This document shows positions 9,249 to 34,295 of a stretch of DNA of 64,000 nt, piece after piece (positions within the stretch are counted from its first letter, which is position 1; every line of letters begins with the position of its first letter). The DNA is taken from assembly GCA_025993875.1 (NCBI GenBank), contig JAMQHH010000014.1:8009-72008 (forward strand). The letters run 5' to 3'. The DNA comes from Candidatus Dojkabacteria bacterium. Its GTDB lineage: Bacteria > Patescibacteriota > Dojkabacteria > J137. A program made the translations under genes and the position numbers. Below the pieces are notes generated by a model. The model had not been told where the DNA came from, searched no databases, and was given only the letters and a program-made list of their open reading frames with translations.

Positions 9249-9343
9249 AACAGATCTTCGCATTTGTGTTCAATTGGAAGAATGTCTCGAAGCCATAGCT
9301 TGGCATCTAGTCCCTCTGAGGAGGTTGATCCTGCCCGTAGGTA

Positions 9344-9853
9344 TTACGCGAGATTTTTTTTTGCTATTTTAAGCGCTTCACCTTCCAAAGCTACAACGTA
9401 TATTTTCTCATCTTTTGCAAGAATTTTAATAACTGTTTTAAGAAAAAGTTTTGCTTTGCTAAACTTGCGCGGAAGAATAAGAGCAATCCCTTTTGGAGAA
9501 ATACCTTTTAGCTTTTTTAACTTTATTTTTGCCAGGTTAATTATTCTAATATCCGGAATAAATGCAATACCTCTAGACAGATTGATAATGGTAAAAACAC
9601 TTGCGTCGATAAGATTTGTTTTCCTGGAATCGTTAACTATAATTTCCTCACATGCCTTTTGTATTTGGAAAACAATGGAGTAGTTTGATATTTTTATTCT
9701 CTCCAAAAGATATATCATAACTATATAATAAGAGCTGCTTAGACCGTTTTGGCACAACACTATTTTGAAGTAAAAAGCTTTCTCTTGTAAAAATTTTTTG
9801 TAACCCGACTTTAATAGTTTCTCCTCCTCTATTAAATCCTTGTATCGCAGCAT
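9344..9853 (-). CDS. Hypothetical protein
   Basis: 169 aa ORF immediately 3' of tRNA-Gly. No recognisable motif. Confidence 0.35.
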   Translation of the reverse strand: MLRYKDLIEEEKLLKSGYKKFLQEKAFYFKIVLCQNGLSSSYYIVMIYLLERIKISNYSIVFQIQKACEEIIVNDSRKTNLIDASVFTIINLSRGIAFIPDIRIINLAKIKLKKLKGISPKGIALILPRKFSKAKLFLKTVIKILAKDEKIYVVALEGEALKIAKKNLA

Positions 9854-10073
9854 AGAGTTTATTTAACAATGACACTGTATCCACTTTAAACTGACAGATA
9901 AGTTTAATTGTTTTCAATCACAAATGCAATTCCCTGTTTACTTTTATACATTTTAAAAATTTTTAATGTTGTCAATTAATGCCGTTTTCAGTTTTTTTTG
10001 ACACTGTAATATGTTGTTGATAGCATTTTTTATGCAGGGCCCTAGCAGTAAATAATATGCTTTCGAAAGGAGC

Positions 10074-19467: not shown

Positions 19468-20427
19468 CTAATCTTTTTTTATGGCTTGCCAAATCTTAAA
19501 TGCTTCTTTACTAACATCTTGGTTAGTAAATAGTTGATTTTGCAAAAGCCCAAAATATAAAACAATAAGTTTTACAACCTCAACCTTTCGGCTTACAATT
19601 ATAAGTTCATTTGGATCGACTTTGTTCATCTCGCTTAAAAAGATTTTTTCGTATTTTCTGCAAACGTAAAGTCCGTTTAGATAAGCTAAATGTTTTTTTT
19701 CATCTTCCATTCTCTTTTTTAAAAGAGAAAACGATTTTCCTCCAAAATGAAAAACATATGAATAGGTTGTAATGCCAATTTCTCCAAAATTTCTAAGATA
19801 GGTACTTAATTCTAAATCGTCCCAGTATCCGTGTGCTATCTGCGGATCTAAAATATATTCCCTCTGTTTTATTGGAGCAGAATTGAATAGTGTGCAAAAT
19901 CCTCCGCAAAAGTCGTAAAAATGAGAAGATGCTTTAAATTTTTCTCTGCTTTTACTTCTTGGTGATAAGTTTAAAATATTTTGATAAATTTGAGCTCTAT
20001 TTAACCCAAAAGGAAGTCTTTTTATTATCTTCCAAAAAACTGTATCTTGATAAAAGCTGTTACAATCGGGCATGATCTGCGAAATTTTAGGGTTGTTATC
20101 CATCTCATCGTTTAATATCTTAAGCCAATCCTTTGTTACAATCGCATCGCTATTTAAGAGGCAAATTCTTTTGTGTTTTACTGCGTCTAGATAACATGTG
20201 TTAACTCCTCCTGTAAGACCGAGATTTTTTTTGTTTTTATATATTTTAATTTTATCTGGATATCTCTTTTTAAAATTTTCTCCTACTTTGTAAGAACCTG
20301 CATCTTGCGAATTATGCACAAGATAAATACAAAAATCTTGTGTGAATTTAAAAATGCTATTTATACATTGTTTTAAATGCCATGGAGTTTTATAGTTAAC
20401 AATAACTATAGCTGTAGAATTTTGCAT
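19468..20427 (-). CDS. Family 2 glycosyltransferase
   Basis: 319 aa. The N-terminus IVIVNYKTPWHLKQCINSI and the NSDAIV (DxD-like) region are typical of GT2 / GT-A fold enzymes. Confidence 0.55.
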   Translation of the reverse strand: MQNSTAIVIVNYKTPWHLKQCINSIFKFTQDFCIYLVHNSQDAGSYKVGENFKKRYPDKIKIYKNKKNLGLTGGVNTCYLDAVKHKRICLLNSDAIVTKDWLKILNDEMDNNPKISQIMPDCNSFYQDTVFWKIIKRLPFGLNRAQIYQNILNLSPRSKSREKFKASSHFYDFCGGFCTLFNSAPIKQREYILDPQIAHGYWDDLELSTYLRNFGEIGITTYSYVFHFGGKSFSLLKKRMEDEKKHLAYLNGLYVCRKYEKIFLSEMNKVDPNELIIVSRKVEVVKLIVLYFGLLQNQLFTNQDVSKEAFKIWQAIKKD

Positions 20428-21180
20428 TTACTTTATCTCTCTTATAATAAGCATTGGTGTATTACCTGATTGGCCTTGCGGATTTCCTTTTAAAATTGTT
20501 GCCAAATCGTTTAAGCTATATTTCTTTTTTACACTTTTACTTACACCACAAATATTGTTATCAATAAAATTACCATCGAGTATTATTGTTGGTATACCTA
20601 GCTTCTCTTCAACCTCATTACAAATTGATTCCGGATTTTTAGGGGCTAAAAAGCCATATCCTCTTAATTTTGGAGGATAAAATTCGGGCGGTAAAAAACC
20701 ATCTATAGCATTTACATTGTTTCCGGCTATTCTATAAAACCAACCTCTAATGCCAACTAACTTTAAAAATCCTCCAATAAATACTGCAAGTGTAAATCTG
20801 AACCAACCGGCTTCCCTTATTGCAAGCTGAATTTTTCGCGGAACTGCAAAACCCGGGTCATCTGGCCACTTTTTTACAAACCGAACAAGAAATTTTGCCA
20901 GCCAACCTACTTTTACCTCGCTTTCTTTAACGTAAAATCCTCTGGTGATACTTACAACTTTTGAAGCAATGCAGAAAAGGTCTCCTTCTTTAAAATGAGG
21001 GCTGGCATATTCCTTTATAATTTTAATTAAATCTTCGTCAAAAAGAATAAGACGGGTCTTTATCGGGTATCGGGCAAATTTTCTACCGTTTAAATCGGTA
21101 AAGATCTCCCTGCCTTCTATGGGACTTGTTTTTAGCCCTTCATCTTCGTGTATTACCTCTTCGACCTCGGCTTTATTCAT
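20428..21180 (-). CDS. Hypothetical protein with weak resemblance to F420-0:gamma-glutamyl ligase (CofE)-like fold
   Basis: 250 aa. GDLFCIASKVVSITRG is loosely like the CofE block G-D-[VI]-x-V-V-S-x-K-V-V-S-K-A-E-G. Low confidence. Its start abuts the stop of the upstream gene, so it lies within the operon 21830-19468. Confidence 0.3.
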   Translation of the reverse strand: MNKAEVEEVIHEDEGLKTSPIEGREIFTDLNGRKFARYPIKTRLILFDEDLIKIIKEYASPHFKEGDLFCIASKVVSITRGFYVKESEVKVGWLAKFLVRFVKKWPDDPGFAVPRKIQLAIREAGWFRFTLAVFIGGFLKLVGIRGWFYRIAGNNVNAIDGFLPPEFYPPKLRGYGFLAPKNPESICNEVEEKLGIPTIILDGNFIDNNICGVSKSVKKKYSLNDLATILKGNPQGQSGNTPMLIIREIK

Positions 21181-21185
21181 ATAAG

Positions 21186-21830
21186 TTATTCGTTTTGATT
21201 AATAAATGAATATACCTGAGAATCCTTCCCTATTTCGGCAATATAAACAATGTTAGATTTTAGTATATAAAATGCACCTTCGGGCTGGTAAACCTCTTCT
21301 TTAGAAGGCTTTGTGACATATATTTTTTCTTCACTTTTTCCATCTGAACCAGCTTCCTTTTTCCTAACAAGATAATATGGATCGTTACATTTAATATACT
21401 CAGAATTTAGGTTTTCAATTTTGCAAAAGTAAAATAGGTTGTTTTGCAAGAAAACAATGTTATATGTATCTGAACCAAACGCATCTAAGAGAGGCAAGCT
21501 CATTTGATTATCTAAGTTTGTTAATACCCTTATACCTAAAAACGAGGCTATCGCAATAAGAATAATAGTAACAAATATGGCTGATTGTTTTACAATTCTG
21601 AAAATTCCTTTAGCTATTATGTAAGAAGTCGCACTATTTTTTGATGTAGCAGATGTGTTTACGCTTGCAACCGATGCCGCAGGAACCTGAGAGCTTGGTA
21701 CAAAATATCCTGCAGTAACATTTTGTACGGGCCTTTGCTGAACTTGCTGGGGAACCGGATTGATATTTTTTTGTGAAGAACTTACCTCCGGTTGATTATT
21801 ATACTGCTGAGTCTGCTGATTGTTGCTCAT
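21186..21830 (-). CDS. Hypothetical membrane protein with a Q/S/P-rich low-complexity N-terminus
   Basis: 214 aa. MSNNQQTQQYNNQPEVSSSQ...QQVQQRPVQ is followed by one TM helix (FVTIILIAIASFLGI). Confidence 0.4.
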   Translation of the reverse strand: MSNNQQTQQYNNQPEVSSSQKNINPVPQQVQQRPVQNVTAGYFVPSSQVPAASVASVNTSATSKNSATSYIIAKGIFRIVKQSAIFVTIILIAIASFLGIRVLTNLDNQMSLPLLDAFGSDTYNIVFLQNNLFYFCKIENLNSEYIKCNDPYYLVRKKEAGSDGKSEEKIYVTKPSKEEVYQPEGAFYILKSNIVYIAEIGKDSQVYSFINQNE

Positions 21831-21856: not shown

Positions 21857-21891
21857 AAAGGCGCCCCAACAAACATTGTCGGGACGCCTTT
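21857..21891 (-). terminator. Rho-independent terminator after the giant surface-protein gene
   Basis: On the minus strand, TAAAGGCGTCCCGACAATGTTTGTTGGGGCGCCTTT (stem AAAGGCG+CCC) is followed by TACATTTTAAA (T-rich). Confidence 0.5.
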
Positions 21892-21912: not shown

Positions 21913-24792
21913 CTATTGAAGTACTGCTGTCCAAGCTACTCCTGTAACTGTATCTGCACCTGCTCCACCCGGACCTGTAACAATAATTGTTGCTGTATTG
22001 GATCCAGTTGGATCGGAAACTAATGCAACTCTTGTATTTGGTCCAGCCGATGCTGTTATTGGTGTAAATGTTATTGATTGAATCGGTGCACCTACATTAA
22101 TTACGCAAGTAAATCCTGCTGCTGTGGTAACTCCCGCACATGTTAAATCTACGCCTCCTGTTACTACATTTCTTGCCTGTAGTGCTGTTACGTCAGCTTG
22201 AAGGTTTGTAATATCAGTTTGAGCGGTTGTCATAGCAGTTTGCAGATTTGTTACATCTGTTTGTAACAATGTAACCGACGAATTAATATTTGTTAATTCG
22301 GAAGCTACATCTGCGTATCCTGTAATAGAGAGAGTTCCCAAAACATTTAGGTTTCCAGTTAAATCAGCATTACCTAAATAAGCATTTGCCCATCTGTAGG
22401 TTGTATTACCTAAACTGTAAACATTATCAATATCGGGAATTAAATCGCTATCGACTGTACCTAGGAATGTTGCCATGTTGTTTACAACAAGATCATTTAC
22501 TGTGAGTTGAGCATTAATAAACGAATTACTGTCAACTGTTAATGCACCACTAAATGAAGCATCTCCGGACTGTGTAATAGTTGCTCCACCTGCTCCATAA
22601 CCTGCTCCTGTAGCTAAAAATCCATCCATATAGATATCACCTGTATCGGTTAAGGTTAAACCTCCATCAGCATCTCCATAACCACCCGCTACATTCATAT
22701 AACGGTTTGTTCGTAGTGCTCCAAATTCGTCTATAGTTAAACCTCCGTCGGCATCACCAAACCCACCTCCGACTTGCAGAGAGAAATCAACAAAGCTTGT
22801 CTCTGTTGTTGTATTGTCAGAGTAGACATTTGCCCATCTTGTAGTATCTGAGCCTAGGTTGAATAAAGAATCCCACGATGGCATGGCATTGCCAAAGAAT
22901 GTGGTTGTTCCAGCTCCATCTACCCACAAAAGCGTTCTAAACGGATCGTCTCGTCTTGTTATAATCATTCCGCTATTATCTTCGATAGTTAGCGGATCGG
23001 AATCACCGGAACTGATTGGACCGGTTATTACTACTCTGTCGGAGTTTGCATTTCCTAAAAATACATCTCCGGTTGCTCTTAAATTATCGTTTACTACAAC
23101 GGTTCCCGTAGAGTTGTAAATTTCTCCGTTTACATTAAGATTTCCACCAACTGTTGCATTTCCTAAAATATTTGCGTCATCACAGTAGCTTGAGCCTCCC
23201 GTAGTTGTAAAGCAATCTGCAAAGATGTTATCTACAAACAGGTTTGCCCAAGAATGTGCTGCGCTTCCAAGGCTATATATTCCGTCACCATCCGGTAATA
23301 TGTCAGATCTTACCAAAGAATAAAATCTTACTATATCGGCATCGCTATTACCGATTCTAACTTCGCCATTTAAAAACGAAGTTCCATCGGTTGCTATATT
23401 TCCTCTGGTGTACATATCTCCGGTTGAATTTACTACAAAAAGTTCATTATTTGTTAAATCAAAAAGCCTTATTCCGGATGCTGCAGTATGAATTGCTCTT
23501 ATATTTAATTCACTTGCATCTACTGTTCCTTCTACTCTAAGATCTCCGATTAACTTTGCTTCAAAATTTGTTGCTTCGGGAATTTCAAATCCGTTATCAC
23601 CAGTTCTTAAAACGCTAAATACCGGGTCACCGATAGCGGTAAGTCCCACTTCTAGGCTTCCTAATACCTGAGCATTTTCATCTACTGATAGGTTATCAAC
23701 AATATGCGCACTATCGCAGTATGTAGAACCTCCCATTGAAGAAAAACAATCTGCTGAAAGATTTGCAGCATAAATATTTGCCCATCTTAAAGCACTTGTT
23801 CCTAAGCTATAAGTATTATCTACCATTGGCACAAGATCAGAAGTAGCTCTACCTAAAAAGAATAGTGCGTCGGATGCGCTGTTTCCTAAATATGTATCAA
23901 AATTAAAATAACTTGCACCTTCGAAAGTGCTTGTTCCTAAAACTCTTAAAGTTCCATCAAATCTTGTATTTGCAAATCCTACAAGATCATCAACCAAAAT
24001 CGTTTTACCATATACATATAAGTCCTCGCTCAGTCGAGTAAGACCGTTTACTGTTAAAGCAGGTGCCAATGTTGATGCATAGGGAGAATTTATTGTTAGG
24101 GCCCCGCTCATAGTATCTCCCGTAACGTTTACGTAAAGATCATTTGCCTGGCCTTTTAATAAAACGTCTGTATTACTGTTGTTATCAAGGTATCCTTGAT
24201 CGGCTAAATCCGAGTATGCATCAAAATATGTGTTTCCTAATAATCCTGCATTTATGTTACTTGCATTTCTAAAAAATGTTGAGTCAAATCCATCTAGTAA
24301 ATCTGCATTTCTGAAAAAAGACGAATCAAATCCGTCCAATAAATCAGAATTTAATCCAGACCCGTTTCCCTGCAAAAGGTTAAGAGTAACATTTTGTCCC
24401 GATGTGGTAACAGGAAGATTTCCACTTATTGAGGTAATTGTTATATCACCCTCCGAGATGTTATTAATAGAAGTAATGTTTTCAGTGGACCCTATAGGAA
24501 AAGAGAATGGGGTGTCTTCCTCGCCGGGTGCTTTTACAACTAATTCGTCGTTTTCGTTGACCAAAACTTTTAGCTCACCTTCTTTAGTTGTAGCTCCAAG
24601 AACCTGATCGTTCTTTTTTGAATCGAGATCTTCGGTGATCAATTTACCTTTAATAGTTTGACCATCCTTTAATTCAATACCAATTTCTTTATTATTTAGA
24701 TTGATATTGGGGGTAAATAAACCTATTACTGCAATGATTACAGCGATCAGGCTGAATGCTGCAAGTAACCTAACTACATTAGATTTACTCAT
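21913..24792 (-). CDS. Large (959 aa) repeat-containing fibrous secreted/surface protein (tail-fibre-like repeats)
   Basis: N-terminal signal-anchor. G/T/S/N/D-rich. A tandem 14-aa repeat DLLDGFDS(S/T)FFRNA x2. Four copies of a D-[LI]-[VIL]-P-x2-D-x2-Y-S-L-G-x4-[RS]-W-A-N-x-[YF] unit, two followed by ADCF..GGS.YCD. A GYGDADGGLT x2 repeat. A C-terminal coiled-coil-like TNLQ...TNLQADVTALQ. Confidence 0.6.
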   Translation of the reverse strand: MSKSNVVRLLAAFSLIAVIIAVIGLFTPNINLNNKEIGIELKDGQTIKGKLITEDLDSKKNDQVLGATTKEGELKVLVNENDELVVKAPGEEDTPFSFPIGSTENITSINNISEGDITITSISGNLPVTTSGQNVTLNLLQGNGSGLNSDLLDGFDSSFFRNADLLDGFDSTFFRNASNINAGLLGNTYFDAYSDLADQGYLDNNSNTDVLLKGQANDLYVNVTGDTMSGALTINSPYASTLAPALTVNGLTRLSEDLYVYGKTILVDDLVGFANTRFDGTLRVLGTSTFEGASYFNFDTYLGNSASDALFFLGRATSDLVPMVDNTYSLGTSALRWANIYAANLSADCFSSMGGSTYCDSAHIVDNLSVDENAQVLGSLEVGLTAIGDPVFSVLRTGDNGFEIPEATNFEAKLIGDLRVEGTVDASELNIRAIHTAASGIRLFDLTNNELFVVNSTGDMYTRGNIATDGTSFLNGEVRIGNSDADIVRFYSLVRSDILPDGDGIYSLGSAAHSWANLFVDNIFADCFTTTGGSSYCDDANILGNATVGGNLNVNGEIYNSTGTVVVNDNLRATGDVFLGNANSDRVVITGPISSGDSDPLTIEDNSGMIITRRDDPFRTLLWVDGAGTTTFFGNAMPSWDSLFNLGSDTTRWANVYSDNTTTETSFVDFSLQVGGGFGDADGGLTIDEFGALRTNRYMNVAGGYGDADGGLTLTDTGDIYMDGFLATGAGYGAGGATITQSGDASFSGALTVDSNSFINAQLTVNDLVVNNMATFLGTVDSDLIPDIDNVYSLGNTTYRWANAYLGNADLTGNLNVLGTLSITGYADVASELTNINSSVTLLQTDVTNLQTAMTTAQTDITNLQADVTALQARNVVTGGVDLTCAGVTTAAGFTCVINVGAPIQSITFTPITASAGPNTRVALVSDPTGSNTATIIVTGPGGAGADTVTGVAWTAVLQ

Positions 24793-24888
24793 TTAAAATA
24801 ACTAATATATAAAATATATATTTCTAACTATTGACTGATTATAGCACAGAGCTGCCTATTGTGTATAGTAGTTAAGAAAAAGTCGCAA

Positions 24889-26832
24889 TTAGTGATTTTC
24901 TTTTAAGAGCATGTACATGTAACTGTAACTATTAGAAGAATCGAGGTTGATTGTTTTTAGCTTTTCAAAATTTATCTCTTCTATGTTGTTTATTGCTGCC
25001 CAAAAGTATATTTGATCTTCCAGAAAACCGCTTCCCGACATATTATTTATAAAGTATTGATACTGGATTAAAGCATTAGGGTTATTACGTAGGTAAAAAC
25101 TCCCGCGCGAAATCGGCAATATTATTATTCCAAGCTTTGCTTCAATTTCGTTACTAAAAAAGGTAGCGAGTTCGGCTTTTCCTTGCCATAAAAGTGAGAT
25201 AAAGGGAAGGTTTTCGGGTAGAACGCTATTGTAATTCCACCAATACTCTTTTGCAGCCTCAATTTCCATTGTATAAAGGGAAAGCGCGTAGTTTTGCATT
25301 TCCAAATTGTTACTAATTCGCGCGTTAAGGTAAACTGCATACCAAGCATTTATAGCTTCCGAAACTGATTCTTGATTATTCCCGTCTCTAAACTGATCAA
25401 GCCCATTTGCCCATGAATGCCATTCAAAAAGATCGAAATATCTTAAAAATGGGTAGCTTGTGTTATCTAAATTATAATTCATTATATCTAATACAAGTTT
25501 GGTAACAATCCCAGCATACTTTTCTTTAAATTCTGTATCAATTTCTGCAAGTTGTGTGTAAGCATAAATAAAATATCCATAGTGAAAGTGATGATCATTG
25601 TATCTTTCAGATCCAAAATCAGGCTTTTGCGCTAGGATGCCTTTCCCGCTTGTATCGTATGCAAAATATTTATTATTCTCGCCCTTAGTGTATGTAAACC
25701 AGTCTATTAGTTCGCTTTTTAAAACTTCTGAAATTAATTTTGTGCGTTTCCCGCTATCGGTTTTATCCAGCAAGATTGCCGGCTCGAGCATGTTGGCAAG
25801 CCTGAAAAGCTCTTTACCAATAAAATATATTGATGAGCTTTGCACAGATAATGTACTCAGATCGATTTTCATTAGGCTATCTAATTCGGCTAATATATAA
25901 CCTTCCTTGTATGGCGACTTATCGGGTACAGAAAGATCTATTGAAAGTGCTAACTCTTTTCCGATAAAAGTTTCTAACTTACCTCTTATTGTACTGATTG
26001 AAAAGGCAGTATCTACATTTTTTTCTAAAAATTTTTTATGAATTGGGAGAAATCCGATAAATGTGTCTCCTTCATTTTCTGTATAGATTTGATACTCTAA
26101 TCCCAGCTTGCTGTTATCGGCAAATGTAAAGTTTACCTCAGATTTTACAGGAAGGTTTACTGCCGTTTTTTGGTAAAACTCCAAATATATCTCGTTTGGA
26201 ATGTAACCCAAAGCTATGTATTTGCCAGAAATTTTTTTTTGGTCCTGTATTGTTGCACCCTCTAAACTTTCCAAATAAAAAAGTTTTCCTGACTCGCTTA
26301 CAATTACCTTTTCTTCTTTAAAATTTTCAGCCTGTTTTAGTATAAAACTATTTTTGCACTCAGATATATAAATAAGAGGGTTACCTCTAACCAATGTTAA
26401 TTTAAAAAATCCGGTATCATTATAAAATTTATATCTAGCCAAAAGAGCATCAAAATATTCAAGCTCGTAGTTATAGGTATTATCGAATTCTATTGTTAGA
26501 TCGGGAGAAAAACTTTGAAAAACTCCCTGTTCTAATGTAATTTGAGAAGGAATAGAATATGCAATTTGTGTAGCCGAAAGCTCTATAGAATATGGATAAG
26601 GGTAAATTGGATTGTCTTTTTCGCCAAGGCTTCCCGTAAACCACTTATTTGTTGGTAATGGCTGTTTTTGCAAATCTTTAGAGAGTTTTAAAGTGTATGT
26701 GGTGCTTATTTCGGGGGAATTTTCAGAATATACTTCCTCCTCAATGTATAAGGGTTTTAAACCAGAGGAAACGATAATAATTGCAATTCCTGTTGTAAAA
26801 AGTGTAAGAAAGATAAAAAAGGTAGATTTCAT
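24889..26832 (-). CDS. Membrane-anchored glycoside hydrolase, GH81-like endo-beta-1,3-glucanase
   Basis: 647 aa with an N-terminal TM segment. The block YNDHHFHYGYFIYAYTQLAEID matches, as I remember it, the conserved GH81 motif (DHHFHYGY). Its start overlaps the stop of the HlyD-like gene (ATGA). Confidence 0.5.
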   Translation of the reverse strand: MKSTFFIFLTLFTTGIAIIIVSSGLKPLYIEEEVYSENSPEISTTYTLKLSKDLQKQPLPTNKWFTGSLGEKDNPIYPYPYSIELSATQIAYSIPSQITLEQGVFQSFSPDLTIEFDNTYNYELEYFDALLARYKFYNDTGFFKLTLVRGNPLIYISECKNSFILKQAENFKEEKVIVSESGKLFYLESLEGATIQDQKKISGKYIALGYIPNEIYLEFYQKTAVNLPVKSEVNFTFADNSKLGLEYQIYTENEGDTFIGFLPIHKKFLEKNVDTAFSISTIRGKLETFIGKELALSIDLSVPDKSPYKEGYILAELDSLMKIDLSTLSVQSSSIYFIGKELFRLANMLEPAILLDKTDSGKRTKLISEVLKSELIDWFTYTKGENNKYFAYDTSGKGILAQKPDFGSERYNDHHFHYGYFIYAYTQLAEIDTEFKEKYAGIVTKLVLDIMNYNLDNTSYPFLRYFDLFEWHSWANGLDQFRDGNNQESVSEAINAWYAVYLNARISNNLEMQNYALSLYTMEIEAAKEYWWNYNSVLPENLPFISLLWQGKAELATFFSNEIEAKLGIIILPISRGSFYLRNNPNALIQYQYFINNMSGSGFLEDQIYFWAAINNIEEINFEKLKTINLDSSNSYSYMYMLLKENH

Positions 26833-27455
26833 ATTCTAAGTTTTACATCTACAGGTTGCTCAAAAAAAAGCCCATTTGGAACAGGGTCGATTTTAAACAG
26901 AGCTTTTATCTCGCCATCGGTAAGAAATGGATAAAGATATATAAGTTCTGCATTGTGAGGCGATTTGTCTAAAGGATTGATCCACTCTGCGGTTTTTGGC
27001 TGAGTAAAGTCAAAATCAATTGTCCAGTTAAATGGTATCGAGGCTTCAATATAATCCGAATCTACAACTATAATATCTAATATCTTGGCATATAAAGTTA
27101 CTGTATCACCTTTGTTAAGACTTATATTAGTAACCTCTCCTTTAGAAGTTGAATATACACTCGAAATAAATGATTCTTCTGTATTAGTTTGTTCGACCCC
27201 AACAATATTATCTCCTACTCTTCCTAAAAGAGTTTCTATTTCTGCAATTTTTTCACCTTTATCTACAAAATCACCATTTGTTACATACATTTCTTTTATC
27301 TGCCCTATCGAAACTGAATTTATAGTGGCTATTTCGGCCTTTAATTTTCCTTTTAGAGTAATTTCTTTTTTATTGCTAAAAACCTTGTTAAATAATAGAT
27401 AACCAAATCCGAAAATTAAAATTACAAACATTACTGTAAAAATTCTTTTACTCAT
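26829..27455 (-). CDS. HlyD-like membrane-fusion/periplasmic adaptor protein (biotin-lipoyl-like barrel)
   Basis: 208 aa. An N-terminal TM segment, then GQIKEMYVTNGDFVDKGEKIAEIE, a lipoyl-like hairpin typical of HlyD/MFP adaptors. Overlaps the GT2 synthase gene by 8 nt. Confidence 0.45.
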   Translation of the reverse strand: MSKRIFTVMFVILIFGFGYLLFNKVFSNKKEITLKGKLKAEIATINSVSIGQIKEMYVTNGDFVDKGEKIAEIETLLGRVGDNIVGVEQTNTEESFISSVYSTSKGEVTNISLNKGDTVTLYAKILDIIVVDSDYIEASIPFNWTIDFDFTQPKTAEWINPLDKSPHNAELIYLYPFLTDGEIKALFKIDPVPNGLFFEQPVDVKLRI

Positions 27456-29010
27456 TTGTTGCTAAATTAATATGTAATCTCTCTTTTCTGCTTTTTTTTC
27501 GGTAAAATTTAGTAAAAATCATTGTCTTGAGTCCTTTTTCCTTAATAAATTCAAGGATAATTGTGCCAAATAATGCTGAATAAAGGCTTACCCAAAATAT
27601 ACTTAAAACTGTCGACGGAATGTCTCTAGGCTTAATTGCACCAATCACGATGGATGCTATTCCTAGCCCAAAAATAAGAAGGTGCGGATATATTACCGAG
27701 AAATTGGTCTTTGTTGTTTGTATTCCGTTAGTTGCCTGCCATACAAATTTTCTTCCTAAAAGAATTTCAAAAAAACTGCCTATATATATTGGAAAAGTTG
27801 CAATAGAAAGAGCCATAGACTTAAGTTTTAATCCGCCCATTGCATATAGCGTAATAGAAAAGTTTATTATAAAAAAGGGAATATATCTAATCAGCCAATC
27901 GGTTGCATTATTTGTAACTATGGGTCTTTCTCCTGTTAGCAGATAAATCATAGGAAATAAAACATAAGCCATAATTGCAAAGCCCGAAAGATAAAAAGTG
28001 CACGACATATATTGTATTCTTTGATCTAGTGAAAGATTTCTATTAAAAAGGGGAAAATGTTCCAACAACATAGAAAATCCACCTCTGGACCACCTTCTTT
28101 GTTGCTTAAAATATGATTCTATGGTGTCTGGCGCTAGTCCAATCGCCATAACATCCGGAACATAAAGCGTTTTCCATTTTAATTCGTGCAATTTGTACGA
28201 GGTAAATACGTCTTCGGAGTGGCTAACCTGTGCAAGCCCACCCATTTCTTCTAAAGCTTTTCTTCGATATATTACGTTTGTGCCTACGCAAAATGCAGCG
28301 TTAAACGAATTTTTACCTGGCATTATTAGCTCATAAAAAACATTTTGAATCGGTAAAGCTGCTTCTTCAACAAAGGTGGATCCTTTCTTATAGTACTGTG
28401 GAGTTTGTAAAAGAGCCAGATTTTCATCGTCAAAATATGGGAGCAATTTACTTAAAAAATCTTTTCTTGGAACAAAATCGGCATCAAACACAACTATGTA
28501 TTCACCATTTGATTGTTTTATTGCATTATTTACATTGCCCGATTTAAAATTTTCGTTAGTACCTCTATGTATATATTCAACTTTAAGAGTCTTTGCAAGA
28601 GTTTTGAGCTCATCTCTGCCTTTATCGTCCAAAATATATGTTTTGTGATTAAGATCCATACTTTTAACTGCAACAACTGTTTTCTTTATTACACTGAAAG
28701 GTTCGGTTACAACCGGTATAAACACATCTATTGTTGTCTTTTTAAACTTTTTTTGCAGTTCTTCTTTTTTTGCGTGTAAAGGTGTTGGCTCTTTATGGTG
28801 AAGAATTGTCCACCAAACAAAAACTGAGTGGACAATAACATAGGTTTCAACAATTATGTAAAAAATATATAGATAAGGGTTTGAAATAATTGAGGGATTA
28901 ATAATAAAGGAAAAATATAGAAGTGCAAATATTATTGCTAAAAAGGTAAGCAACAAAATTGACTTTTGCGCCTTTTGTAACTTGTTAAGATGTAACTCTT
29001 CTCTAGACAT
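27448..29010 (-). CDS. Processive family-2 beta-glycosyltransferase (cellulose/curdlan/chitin-synthase-like) with multiple TM helices
   Basis: 520 aa. The D, DxD (VVFDADF), TED-like and QQRRWSRG (QxxRW) motifs of processive GT2 polysaccharide synthases are present. TM helices occur at both ends. Confidence 0.75.
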   Translation of the reverse strand: MSREELHLNKLQKAQKSILLLTFLAIIFALLYFSFIINPSIISNPYLYIFYIIVETYVIVHSVFVWWTILHHKEPTPLHAKKEELQKKFKKTTIDVFIPVVTEPFSVIKKTVVAVKSMDLNHKTYILDDKGRDELKTLAKTLKVEYIHRGTNENFKSGNVNNAIKQSNGEYIVVFDADFVPRKDFLSKLLPYFDDENLALLQTPQYYKKGSTFVEEAALPIQNVFYELIMPGKNSFNAAFCVGTNVIYRRKALEEMGGLAQVSHSEDVFTSYKLHELKWKTLYVPDVMAIGLAPDTIESYFKQQRRWSRGGFSMLLEHFPLFNRNLSLDQRIQYMSCTFYLSGFAIMAYVLFPMIYLLTGERPIVTNNATDWLIRYIPFFIINFSITLYAMGGLKLKSMALSIATFPIYIGSFFEILLGRKFVWQATNGIQTTKTNFSVIYPHLLIFGLGIASIVIGAIKPRDIPSTVLSIFWVSLYSALFGTIILEFIKEKGLKTMIFTKFYRKKSRKERLHINLATNE

Positions 29011-31280: not shown

Positions 31281-32125
31281 TGTATTAATAGCTGTTTTAG
31301 GTAATGCATTCCCCCCCATAATGCTCCCAAGTCGCCAAGTTCCGACTTTAAAATTACCGGTTTAACAGGTATTCGATTATATATCAAATTGTATTCTTTT
31401 ATCAGTTTTTCAATAACTATTTTATTGCCGTTAACGAGTCCTCCTCCCAATACTAATGCCTCCGGCGACCAACACATTGTTATATTTGCGAGTCCGATTG
31501 CCAAATAATTATGTACTTTCTCCCATACTGCTATATCGGCAATTTCACTTGGTTGTTTATTATATTGAGCTTTTAACGCGCTACCCGAAACAAGATTTTC
31601 CAATGTATAAAGTTTTTTATCTATTATCAGAATTTGATGTCCGGGTTCAAAGCCGGTGTAGTGTGGTTCAATAGCATTGTTTACTATCTTTACCCCACCT
31701 ACTCCCGTACTTATGGTTATATACCCGTTAATTTTATAATTTTTTGCTGCCCCAAAAACCGATTCTCCCAACCCAACCATTGCCGTATCGTTTTCTAAAT
31801 AGCAGCGCACACTGAGAGCTGCTTCTAATTCATTTTTTAGAAACACACCTTCCCATTCTTTTAAATGTGGGGCTTTTAGTAAAAAACTTTTGGAAGGTTC
31901 AAGTGTTCCGTGTACACCTGCAGCGGCTAATTTTAAAGAGGAACCTGCTGAAAAATCTTTTATATATTTTTTTGCAATTGAGATAAAATCTCTAAAATTT
32001 TTTGGGGTTGAAAATATTAAAGGTTCGGTAAAGCTTTTTAGCTCCGAACTTAGTGCAATCCGAGATTTTGTTCCTCCTATATCTGCTAAAAAATACATAT
32101 TTTTAATCTTTATCATGCCTGCCAA
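31277..32125 (-). CDS. ROK-family glucokinase
   Basis: ADIGGTKSRIAL (N-terminal ATP-binding), ENDTAMVGLGE, and ISTGVGGVKIV ROK motifs are present. The true start may be MYFLADIGG at 32098, which removes the 23-nt overlap with zwf-gnd. Confidence 0.7.
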   Translation of the reverse strand: MAGMIKIKNMYFLADIGGTKSRIALSSELKSFTEPLIFSTPKNFRDFISIAKKYIKDFSAGSSLKLAAAGVHGTLEPSKSFLLKAPHLKEWEGVFLKNELEAALSVRCYLENDTAMVGLGESVFGAAKNYKINGYITISTGVGGVKIVNNAIEPHYTGFEPGHQILIIDKKLYTLENLVSGSALKAQYNKQPSEIADIAVWEKVHNYLAIGLANITMCWSPEALVLGGGLVNGNKIVIEKLIKEYNLIYNRIPVKPVILKSELGDLGALWGGMHYLKQLLIQ

Positions 32126-34295
32126 ACATATGCCTTATTGCGGTAACTATTTTCCCGGCAAACCTTGGATTAGATTTAGCAGTTATCCTAAAATTAAGTG
32201 AATCTTCTATAACTTTAACATCTACTCCAAGTTTTTTACCTGTTTCCACTGTCCAGTCGCCCATACCGGTATGGGGTGTAATGTGTGAAATCGTATCGAG
32301 TTTATTAGAATAGATTAAAAATGCCTGCCATAACCATACAATTAATTTCGATTCTATTATGCTTCCTGAGCTATAGTTTCCAGCAACCTCCAAAAGGTCA
32401 ATTTCGGGACTATACGTATTTATAAGTTCAAAACCCTCTGCGATAGACTCCATCATTCCATATTCTATTCCGTTATGAACCATTTTTACAAAATGCCCTT
32501 CTCCCGGGTTTGAAAAAATTGTGTATCCCCCTGTTTCGCAGATGCTTTCGAAAAGGTATTCGACAGATCTCGTAACATCCGGTTTTCCTCCTACCATTAC
32601 TGTAGCTCCATTTCTAGCGCCGGTTGGCCCTCCCGAGGTTCCCATATCAATAAACTCAATTCCTTTCTCTTCTAAAAGCTTAAATCTTCTTAAAGAGTCT
32701 ATGTAGTTCGAGTTTCCTCCATCGATAATAATATCTCCTGTCTCCAAAAAGTTTATTAAACCATTTTCGCTAAAAATCACCTCTTCAATAGGATCCCCTT
32801 CTGGTAAATATAAAAGTATTGTTCTTGGCTTGGACATTGCGCTACATAAATCCTTAATGCTATTAAATCCATTAGCTTTATTTTTTACAAAATCAGCCAT
32901 TTTTTCGGGGGTCCGGTTGTAAACGAATAGGTTCCAGCCCTTATCTAGTAATTGATAAGCTATCCCGCCCCCCATTTTCCCTAAACCAATTATTCCAACA
33001 GTTTTTTTGTGATTCTCTACATTTTTATGTAACAGAGGATAAGAATAATCGTTATAAGTAACGATCCGATTAGGATCTTTTAATTTGTTAAACACAGGTA
33101 ATATTAAGTTCCAGCAAAATTTGGCTTCGGATACGGTTACTAGTTTCGAAAAATCACTCTTCAATATTATTTCGTTAAATGCTTTGCAGTATTCGGTAAG
33201 ATACGATTCTCCTTCTTCGTTCTCTTTTTCTGAAAAATATGAAATCTCTTTATTATTGATATTTGCAATAATATATTCTGAGTTACGATTAAAGGAGATA
33301 AGTAGAAAGTCCCCATTTTTAAAATTAATTTTTATCTCTTTTTCGACTTTAGAAAGCTTTTTACCACCTTCAATTTTGGCTACTACTCCTCTCCATCTGG
33401 GGGATTTTAGTTTAAGTTCCATTTTAAAAAAAGTTTCAGTACAAGATCTTTCCAGACCTTCTATGGTTTTATAAGAACTATACTGGCCAAGTATTAATGA
33501 TTGGTCAATAACCTCAAACGATTTTATTGCCCACTCTCTTTTTTCGGCAAAACTTACGGGGTTATATTTGTCAAATTTATCCATAGTAACTAAGGCTAGC
33601 ATTTCGAGCGCATGATTTTGCCCTACATCAGTTAAGGCGCCTGTTGAATCGTAAAATATACTGCGTTTTTCTATGCCTGATGTTTCGTTAATTTTTATTT
33701 CTATGCTTTTTACATAATTTTTATTTAGCGCAGACTCAAAAAGAGAAATTTCAAATCTAAATTTTAGAAAAGACTCTACGATTTTTTTGTAAAGGTAGTG
33801 ATCTATAATATAAAAATTACTACTCAAGTTATTAGCTTGTATTGATGTAGCAATTTTATTGGCTTCGGCCGGTGAGTTTCCGAATGGTTTTTCAGATAAA
33901 AAGAATAATTCGACAGAAGTTAAGGCCAACCGGTTAATTTTTACAATAATATCGTTGTAGCCTGTTGGCGGTACACTTAGATGGATAAAAGCTTTTTGTA
34001 TACCGTTTTTAAGAATGTATTCTTCAATTTTGGAGTAAAGTTCATCATTATTAAAATCACCACTTATAAAATCGGTATTTTTTTCAAGTGGCGAAATATC
34101 CTCAGAATTAAAAATCTCAGTTTTTAAAAAACTAAGAAACTCGGTTTTCCCGAATTGTTTTCTGGATATCCCAATAATATCTACATTTAGAAATTCGGGA
34201 TTCTTTTTGCACAGTAACTTAATACCAGGGAAAATTTTTCTTTTTGCCAGGTCTCCAGTTGCTCCAAATATAAATAAAGCTGTTTTCTTTTCCAT
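32103..34295 (-). CDS. zwf-gnd: Fused glucose-6-phosphate 1-dehydrogenase / 6-phosphogluconate dehydrogenase (decarboxylating, short form)
   Basis: 730 aa. N-terminal half carries the G6PD motifs GATGDLAKRK, EKPFG, IIDHYLYKK (RIDHYLGK), and DVGQNHALEM. C-terminal about 300 aa carries the 6PGD motifs IIGLGKMGGG, DGGNS, GTSGG, and HFVKMVHNGIEYG. Confidence 0.85.
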   Translation of the reverse strand: MEKKTALFIFGATGDLAKRKIFPGIKLLCKKNPEFLNVDIIGISRKQFGKTEFLSFLKTEIFNSEDISPLEKNTDFISGDFNNDELYSKIEEYILKNGIQKAFIHLSVPPTGYNDIIVKINRLALTSVELFFLSEKPFGNSPAEANKIATSIQANNLSSNFYIIDHYLYKKIVESFLKFRFEISLFESALNKNYVKSIEIKINETSGIEKRSIFYDSTGALTDVGQNHALEMLALVTMDKFDKYNPVSFAEKREWAIKSFEVIDQSLILGQYSSYKTIEGLERSCTETFFKMELKLKSPRWRGVVAKIEGGKKLSKVEKEIKINFKNGDFLLISFNRNSEYIIANINNKEISYFSEKENEEGESYLTEYCKAFNEIILKSDFSKLVTVSEAKFCWNLILPVFNKLKDPNRIVTYNDYSYPLLHKNVENHKKTVGIIGLGKMGGGIAYQLLDKGWNLFVYNRTPEKMADFVKNKANGFNSIKDLCSAMSKPRTILLYLPEGDPIEEVIFSENGLINFLETGDIIIDGGNSNYIDSLRRFKLLEEKGIEFIDMGTSGGPTGARNGATVMVGGKPDVTRSVEYLFESICETGGYTIFSNPGEGHFVKMVHNGIEYGMMESIAEGFELINTYSPEIDLLEVAGNYSSGSIIESKLIVWLWQAFLIYSNKLDTISHITPHTGMGDWTVETGKKLGVDVKVIEDSLNFRITAKSNPRFAGKIVTAIRHMFGRHDKD

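Follow-up and report, generated by a model that had tools for sequence, protein, structure and literature searches.

The 64,000-nucleotide stretch of DNA analysed here (the window) carries on its reverse strand a 959-residue open reading frame (ORF), at positions 21913-24792, that encodes a membrane-anchored fibrous protein and is followed directly by a smaller gene for a second membrane protein, termed here the partner. The fibre is a mosaic of phage tail-fibre and tailspike modules carried on a single N-terminal transmembrane helix, with one shaft element, the joint, repeated four times, and together with the partner it forms a conserved two-gene cassette that is a candidate attachment or envelope structure. 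The first-pass annotation of this DNA had described the ORF, its N-terminal anchor, a set of internal repeats, a heptad-like segment and a downstream hairpin, all of which lie at the positions it gave; it overlooked the partner gene, at 21186-21830, which is the strongest contextual signal at the locus. The features of the cassette, all on the reverse strand and in the order in which they are read, are:

24838-24867, reverse strand: promoter-like site TATACA-18-TGnTATAAT, about 45 nt upstream of the fibre ATG, a consensus match only
21913-24792, reverse strand: fibre gene, a 959-residue ORF; its product is identical to protein P0001
24694-24783, reverse strand: N-terminal signal-anchor (residues 4-33), a short basic N-terminal tail followed by one hydrophobic helix
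24493-24693, reverse strand: membrane-proximal N-domain (residues 34-100), in which L41 and V64-L65-G66 do not vary across the family alignment
24073-24357, reverse strand: module A (residues 146-240), LDGxDSxFF / NASNINAGxLG..YF.AYSDL..GYLD, including a 14-residue tandem duplication at 24262-24345
23713-23844, reverse strand: joint unit 1 and Cys loop, D-L-V-P-x2-D-x2-YSLG-x4-RWAN-x-Y, ADCFSSMGGSTYCD
23173-23310, reverse strand: joint unit 2 and Cys loop, z = 27.6 against unit 1, ADCFTTTGGSSYCD
22816-23235, reverse strand: shaft module (residues 520-659), lacking in the ortholog P0002 and ending in joint unit 3 (22813-22878)
22528-22770, reverse strand: three Gly-rich 27-residue units (GGxGDADGGLT...), assessed by shuffle z-scores
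22363-22452, reverse strand: joint unit 4, preceded by the family-wide INAQLTVxDLVV motif and matched by Pfam PF12219
22171-22317, reverse strand: coiled-coil neck (residues 826-874) of about six heptads, modelled as a helix at residues 829-872
21916-22164, reverse strand: C-terminal tip (residues 877-959), a six-strand β-sandwich with a conserved pair C885/C896, ending WTAVLQ
21857-21891, reverse strand: hairpin with a 16-bp stem between the fibre stop codon and the partner gene, a terminator or attenuator
21186-21830, reverse strand: partner gene, 214 residues, with a Q/N/S-rich N-terminal tail, a transmembrane helix at about residues 82-102 and a conserved extracytoplasmic domain of about 95 residues

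The fibre has a skewed composition (Thr 10.9 %, Gly 10.8 %, Leu 10.0 %, Asp 8.8 %, Asn 8.7 %, Ala 8.6 % and Ser 8.0 %, with Lys and Arg together at 4.2 %). Residues 4-33 are hydrophobic (Kyte-Doolittle 2.76), AlphaFold2 (AF2) places a helix at residues 4-25 and an N-terminal transmembrane helix is also present in every full-length family member. Direct reading of the N-terminus reveals neither a lipobox nor a small-x-small cleavage site, hydropathy analysis of the whole protein finds no second transmembrane segment beyond residues 4-33, and the C-terminus (...TGVAWTAVLQ) has neither an LPXTG motif nor a hydrophobic tail. The signal-anchor assigned by the first-pass annotation is upheld as a single N-terminal transmembrane helix, and the prediction is of a protein tethered to the membrane and lying outside the cytoplasm, with an N-in/C-out topology. 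The N-domain that follows the anchor has no Pfam match; the alignment of a Dojkabacteria homolog to the fibre begins at residue 39, within this domain.

The joint sequence [YF][SN]LGx4[RS]WAN is found at residues 328, 506, 644 and 792, in agreement with the nucleotide ranges originally reported for four copies, and the ADCF..GGSxYCD sequence noted after some of them follows copies 1 and 2. When four 85-residue units around the YSLG motif are compared by pairwise local alignment, z-scores of 6.6-27.6 are obtained against composition-preserving shuffles; the named repeats score far above such shuffles and their spacing is conserved. Both copies of the GYGDADGGLT sequence are likewise present, as G[FY]GDADGGLT at residues 677 and 704, inside the three 27-residue units (z = 8.0 for units 1 and 2, 4.7 for units 2 and 3, but only 2.1 for units 1 and 3). 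The DLLDGFDSxFFRNA pair (residues 150-163 and 164-177, nt 24262-24345) lies where it had been located, although it is not the perfect duplication described: 13 of 14 residues but only 34 of 42 nucleotides are identical, the copies thus differing at 8 of 42 nucleotides and at one amino acid. This pattern, together with the single copy of the unit in the ortholog P0002, argues that the duplication is lineage-specific, not recent and under purifying selection.

Some joints are followed by a Cys loop, C-x3-GGS-x-YC-D-(D/S)-A (window 23713-23754 and 23182-23220; residues 347-360 and 525-537), which recurs in the family members P0015, P0017, P0022, P0026 and P0036 and in the Dojkabacteria homolog, and which could close a disulfide ring within or between chains. 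Module A, also widespread as a shaft module and frequently arranged in tandem arrays, occurs in metagenome-assembled genomes (MAGs) of WWE3, Woesebacteria, Dojkabacteria, Saccharibacteria, Nomurabacteria, Chloroflexota, Planctomycetota and others. Its first 24-30 residues (the LDGxxSxxF..NASNI element) are present in 52 IMG/VR viral contigs, whilst the module has no Pfam family and no relative in the structural database (PDB) by profile search. Arrays of two to four copies are found in large proteins of Chloroflexota and other phyla (P0021, P0027 and P0031; loci L006, L007, L009, L013, L018 and L022, from Chloroflexota MAGs), and these array proteins lack the partner and tip of the cassette family.

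The joint links this shaft to phage fibres, as the first-pass annotation had suggested from its resemblance to a tail-fibre repeat. Positions 128-156 of the 160 in PF12219 (End_tail_spike) match fibre residues 781-809, scoring 30.7 bits where the curated cut-off is 25 (E = 3.8e-7). The matched C-terminal end of this family is the final element of the shaft ahead of the site at which the chaperone is cleaved off. Joint units 1 and 3 are also recognised by PHROG families for tail fibres and tailspikes, among them the tail-fibre family phrog_19602 at residues 308-349 (E = 2.3e-10). When the repeat was searched as a profile, built from 82 copies, it matched the fibre gp28 of cyanophage P-SCSP1u (8i4m_e, E = 3.5e-11) and the tailspike 6eu4_A (4e-5), and weakly T5 pb1 (E = 0.24). 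As the P-SCSP1u map resolves this fibre at its N-terminus only (PMC10575957), the gp28 match is evidence at the level of sequence. Among cultured phages only three weak, partial matches were found, which include a tail fibre of Roseobacter phage CRP-212. In 157 related proteins, 546 joint copies were counted, in which P (position -6) is conserved in 94 %, Y in 74 %, L in 84 % and W in 95 %, the G of the motif being fixed by the search pattern. These searches (PF12219, PHROG, P-SCSP1u gp28, CRP-212 and viral contigs) establish homology at the level of modules, and by its sequence the P-x2-D-x2-Y-x-L-G-x4-R-W joint is a genuine phage tail-fibre/tailspike element. Family members also match the Bactofilin, LbH and Hexapep β-helix models. 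Endosialidase and MYRF-type proteins have a triple β-helix ahead of their intramolecular chaperone (see PMC8326128), and on this ground we infer a trimeric β-helical shaft for the fibre. A search of the whole fibre sequence against the PDB returned nothing significant.

The C-terminal part of the fibre consists of a coiled coil and a distal domain. The heptad-like segment seen at first reading comprises about six heptads that coincide with an AF2 helix; over residues 833-874, the a positions are occupied by L, V, V, M, I and V and the d positions by I, L, L, A, L and L. Its similarity to T4 fibritin (1avy) is weak and non-significant (E = 0.27). In the AF2 model of the full-length monomer (mean predicted local distance difference test score, pLDDT, 43.8; shaft below 50), only this helix and the tip are confident. 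The tip modelled alone (residues 870-959, containing the 83-residue domain; 12 aligned sequences) reaches a pLDDT of 90.7 and a pTM of 0.78. Its best fold match in BFVD is an H-type lectin domain from a Siphoviridae sp. (TM-score 0.68, E = 1.3e-2), and others include gp53-like tail-fibre C-termini, the R1 pyocin fibre, LKA1 gp49 and Helix pomatia agglutinin (TM-score 0.42-0.47, E = 0.06-0.08). Foldseek gives no match to the tip at E ≤ 0.001, neither Pfam nor profile searches give an H_lectin match, and the tip sequence profile finds no relative in the PDB. The top fold matches of this modelled domain are consistently trimeric lectin-like fibre tips, but they are weak and provide a lead rather than membership.

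A partner homolog lies directly downstream of the fibre gene at nine of nine cassette loci (the window, L001, L025, L080, L082, L083, L084, L085 and L086), and a metagenome scan with the partner confirmed at least one extra locus. The partner is more conserved than the fibre: identity to distant members is 42-51 % over the full length and 49-60 % over the ectodomain, rising to 73 % for the ectodomain of the ortholog, and the alignment contains 16 invariant columns, two of them Cys, with the motif YNIVFL.N.LFYFC...C.(D/E)PYYLV... in the ectodomain. No relatives of the partner are found in Pfam, PHROG, NCBIfam or the PDB, and, within the sensitivity of the scan, neither partner nor tip was found in 2.9 million IMG/VR viral contigs. 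A non-significant match (E = 0.78) of residues 57-89 (partner profile A7) to the N-terminal fragments of the tailspike 9vyg was not used. At L084, a second, divergent partner ectodomain (9335-9922, 30 % identity) directly follows the first partner gene, which indicates that the partner can be duplicated. Between the fibre and partner genes, a perfect hairpin of 10-16 bp is present at all eight loci whose intergenic region is complete, with sequences that are unrelated to one another; that of the window, with its 16-bp stem, is the terminator-like element that had been ascribed to the fibre gene. Promoter-like sites such as that upstream of the fibre are, in the region overall, fewer than in its shuffles.

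Relatives were collected by exhaustive HMMER searches, a word-indexed homolog search having returned few relatives amid low-complexity and coiled-coil candidates. This yielded 719 representatives at E ≤ 1e-3, most of which share single modules; the whole C-terminal architecture is found in ten of them (P0012, P0015-P0018, P0022, P0024, P0026, P0036 and P0061) and in the ortholog P0002. A first genome scan with N-terminal peptides gave no matches, and the C-terminal alignment is too divergent for pattern scans. The fibre carries each of the features that define the cassette family: a transmembrane anchor, INAQLTVxDLVV with the last joint, a coiled coil, a tip ending in (W/Y)(T/V)A(V/T) and a downstream transmembrane partner with LFYFC...CxxPYYLV. 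Across nine distant members, identity to the fibre is highest for INAQLTV and the last joint (41 %), followed by the tip (36 %), the coiled coil (25 %) and the N-domain (23 %), most of the shaft lying at 5-20 % with low occupancy. The ortholog P0002 is 75 % identical, shares the start MSKSNVVRLL and differs by three in-register indels: one 14-residue unit, one heptad (extra in P0002) and the 140-residue module bounded by joints 2 and 3. The junction of this module (residues 520-659) is in register between the two joints and related modules occur in other family members; such in-register indels indicate that joints act as module boundaries. One Dojkabacteria member (L025 10001-10032; also L026 and L027) carries a frameshift where the coiled coil begins, which splits it into ORFs of 974 and 121 residues. 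All three assemblies, possibly from related samples, show this split, and it could reflect a pseudogene, an assembly error or programmed frameshifting.

The fibre gene is cellular and chromosomal, with host-like codon usage. Pfam annotation of the flanks, covering about 11.9-39.6 kb of the window, identified an AddA-type helicase, MnmA, SpoU, a glucose-6-phosphate dehydrogenase-6-phosphogluconate dehydrogenase fusion, ROK, PGK, seryl-tRNA synthetase (SerRS) and two tRNAs, and no phage genes. The standard genetic code reads through all ORFs. The GC content at third codon positions is 0.237 in the fibre gene and 0.20-0.31 in its neighbours; local GC is raised to 0.39, which arises from codon positions 1 and 2. 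Recent horizontal transfer, considered on account of this higher GC, was rejected since the third-position value is that of the neighbours. The best organism-named SerRS matches are to Candidatus Dojkabacteria (60 % and 56 %) and Peregrinibacteria (57 %), and one clear member of the fibre family is found in a Dojkabacteria MAG.

Compared with PF12219-type phage fibres and tailspikes, including the K1F endosialidase stalk and T5 pb1, and with P-SCSP1u gp28, the fibre has in common the P-x2-D-x2-Y-x-L-G-x4-R-W joint. It also shares their polarity, with the N-terminus on the carrier and the C-terminus distal, and their mosaic, modular shaft. In addition, phage fibre genes are immediately followed by an accessory gene, as this one is by the partner. 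However, the joint is used four times along the shaft rather than a single time ahead of a cleavage site, a transmembrane helix takes the place of a virion adaptor at the N-terminus, the context is cellular and without a phage structural module, and the conserved end is the tip rather than the N-terminus only. Unlike endosialidase-type proteins, the fibre ends in a coiled coil and an 83-residue β-sandwich and lacks the S74 chaperone: Peptidase_S74 (PF13884, ICA) has no match in the fibre or ten relatives at E ≤ 0.01-1. The H-type lectin and gp53-like domains (2ccv, AP22 gp53 4mtm, R1 pyocin 6cl5 and LKA1 gp49 4ru4) are likewise small β-sandwiches at the extreme C-terminus of a fibre, and match the tip model with TM-scores of 0.43-0.68 and Foldseek probabilities of 0.57-1.0, but none does so at E ≤ 0.001, identity is 12-21 % and there is no H_lectin profile match. 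The coiled coil shares with T4 fibritin heptads with V/I at a and L at d; the similarity is non-significant, however, and a β-sandwich follows the coil where fibritin has a foldon. To the trimeric autotransporter adhesins YadA and BadA the likeness is one of functional analogy only, both being long, repetitive, probably trimeric fibres with a coiled coil and a distal head. Here the anchor is an N-terminal transmembrane helix in the cytoplasmic membrane rather than a C-terminal β-barrel in the outer membrane, the polarity is opposite and no YadA anchor, head or stalk Pfam domain is detected.

Taken together, these findings favour, with some confidence, a native cell-surface fibre of a Dojkabacteria-like bacterium of the candidate phyla radiation (CPR/Patescibacteria). 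The fibre chains would be inserted N-in/C-out through Sec and would assemble outside the membrane as a parallel homotrimer, as suggested by the homology to obligately trimeric phage fibres and by the coiled coil. Folding may be nucleated from the conserved C-terminal part and aided by the partner ectodomain; genes for phage tail-fibre assembly proteins lie directly downstream of the fibre gene, which is the ground for proposing the partner as a folding aid. Alternatively, the partner could be a basal co-anchor. The assembled fibre might project some tens of nanometres from the cell, its lectin-like tip binding to another cell or surface through a conserved ligand that is probably a carbohydrate, whilst the fibre gene, from its own promoter, would be expressed in excess over a lower-abundance and partly insulated partner, as permitted by the hairpin. 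For a CPR organism, adhesion to another cell is a plausible role, and whether the fibre serves adhesion or scaffolds the envelope is a matter that we infer from these features. The fullest form of the adhesion proposal is of a lineage-specific attachment organelle of Dojkabacteria-like CPR, in which phage-fibre modules were domesticated onto a membrane anchor, given a dedicated membrane-bound chaperone and used to recognise host glycans; in that full form we consider it doubtful.

Several observations weigh against an adhesive surface fibre of this lineage. The taxon assignment is drawn from SerRS identities of 56-60 % and one named MAG, the AF2 monomer model of the shaft is uninformative on trimerisation and β-helical structure, and the role of the partner is read from gene order only. 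The fold matches of the tip all have E > 0.01 and TM-scores of at most 0.68, with no H_lectin Pfam match. Moreover, the tip is conserved and the shaft varies, a pattern easier to reconcile with a structural role or a conserved ligand than with host-specific adhesion, and a conserved distal tip is unlike the usual receptor-binding tip that determines host range.

A conserved tip would equally fit a conserved ligand on the cell itself or its envelope, and the same molecule in a structural role is therefore retained as a serious rival, which we regard as possible though on balance unlikely. Here, the trimeric stalks would act as an envelope scaffold, spacer or S-layer-like canopy, with tips touching the outer layer or polysaccharide of their own cell. 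This would account for the tip and preceding joint being the best conserved parts of the family whilst shaft length varies, and for an ortholog at 75 % identity, beside 51-73 % for neighbouring genes, with no hint of diversifying pressure. The strong promoter-like site and conserved hairpin would suit an abundant structural product, and the cassette adjoins a processive glucan synthase and a GH81 glucanase both here and in the close relative. However, no SLH or other S-layer domain is found with Pfam or NCBIfam, the linkage to glucan genes is lost in more distant relatives with readable flanks, and what the tip resembles in fold are fibre tips of receptor-binding or lectin type.

That the gene instead encodes the receptor-binding tail fibre of a phage or prophage, or its decaying remnant, is very improbable: although the shaft modules are common to phage fibres, the annotated flanks hold no phage gene, a transmembrane anchor replaces the virion-attachment domain, codon usage is native, the Peptidase_S74 domain is missing, the cassette lies among differing housekeeping neighbours at other loci with enough flank, and the viral contigs, to the sensitivity of their scan, lack both partner and tip. 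Assignments as a prophage, a target of a diversity-generating retroelement, a lipoprotein, a pilin, a sortase substrate or a toxin-delivery fibre were each rejected, their defining signals being absent. Lastly, the view that the repeats are compositional artefacts of an unstructured, low-complexity G/T/S/N/D-rich protein, for which the skewed composition and low-confidence shaft model might speak, was rejected as having next to no likelihood in the face of the shuffle scores, position-specific motif conservation in hundreds of copies elsewhere, significant matches to curated profiles and a duplicated 14-mer whose 8 nucleotide differences alter one amino acid only.

The prevailing view of CPR/Patescibacteria is that they live attached to other cells. 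A review of these organisms names only type IV pili as their attachment apparatus (PMC13293708). A two-gene cassette for a long surface fibre would offer a concrete second candidate, easily recognised and conserved, and, if the fibre is indeed a glycan-recognising organelle, a path to episymbiosis that does without type IV pili. The fibre also clearly illustrates how building blocks of phage tail fibres are used in a membrane-anchored protein of a cell, with modules gained and lost in register at the joints. Neither Pfam nor NCBIfam has a match for three domains defined here, namely the N-domain, the partner ectodomain and the tip. Trimeric fibrous proteins of the cell surface and modules of phage fibres were each known already; for the anchoring mode, the domain set and the obligate partner seen here we found no matching Pfam or NCBIfam family and no paper, nor did the literature yield a paper joining 'candidate phyla radiation' with 'tail fiber-like'. 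New here are the constancy of the partner and of the hairpin across the loci and the failure to find partner and tip among viral contigs.

Upstream of the fibre gene, at 24889-29010 on the reverse strand, lie three genes with overlapping stops and starts:

27448-29010, reverse strand: cellulose-synthase-like processive glycosyltransferase of family 2 (GT2)
26829-27455, reverse strand: HlyD/biotin-lipoyl-like protein
24889-26832, reverse strand: transmembrane-anchored endo-β-1,3-glucanase of glycoside hydrolase family 81 (GH81)

These genes look like a module for β-glucan synthesis and trimming; no NCBIfam family is available for the GH81 protein, nor for the fibre or partner. The link to a polysaccharide module drawn by the first-pass annotation holds in the closest relative (L001/L002) but does not extend to the five loci of distant relatives with enough flank (L025, L080, L082, L083 and L084), where the surrounding genes are unrelated. 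The Dojkabacteria copy of the cassette follows an ECF sigma factor rather than glucan genes, and the other neighbours mostly differ among loci with enough flank. On the far side of the partner gene are a CofE/F420-ligase-like (γ-glutamyl-ligase-like) protein, far under family cut-offs (20428-21180, reverse strand), and a GT2 (19468-20427, reverse strand), both conserved in the close relative only. Further upstream, the dehydrogenase fusion is a 730-residue ORF (32103-34295, reverse strand) that joins the N- and C-terminal domains of glucose-6-phosphate dehydrogenase to 6-phosphogluconate dehydrogenase, and the same fusion is present in L001.

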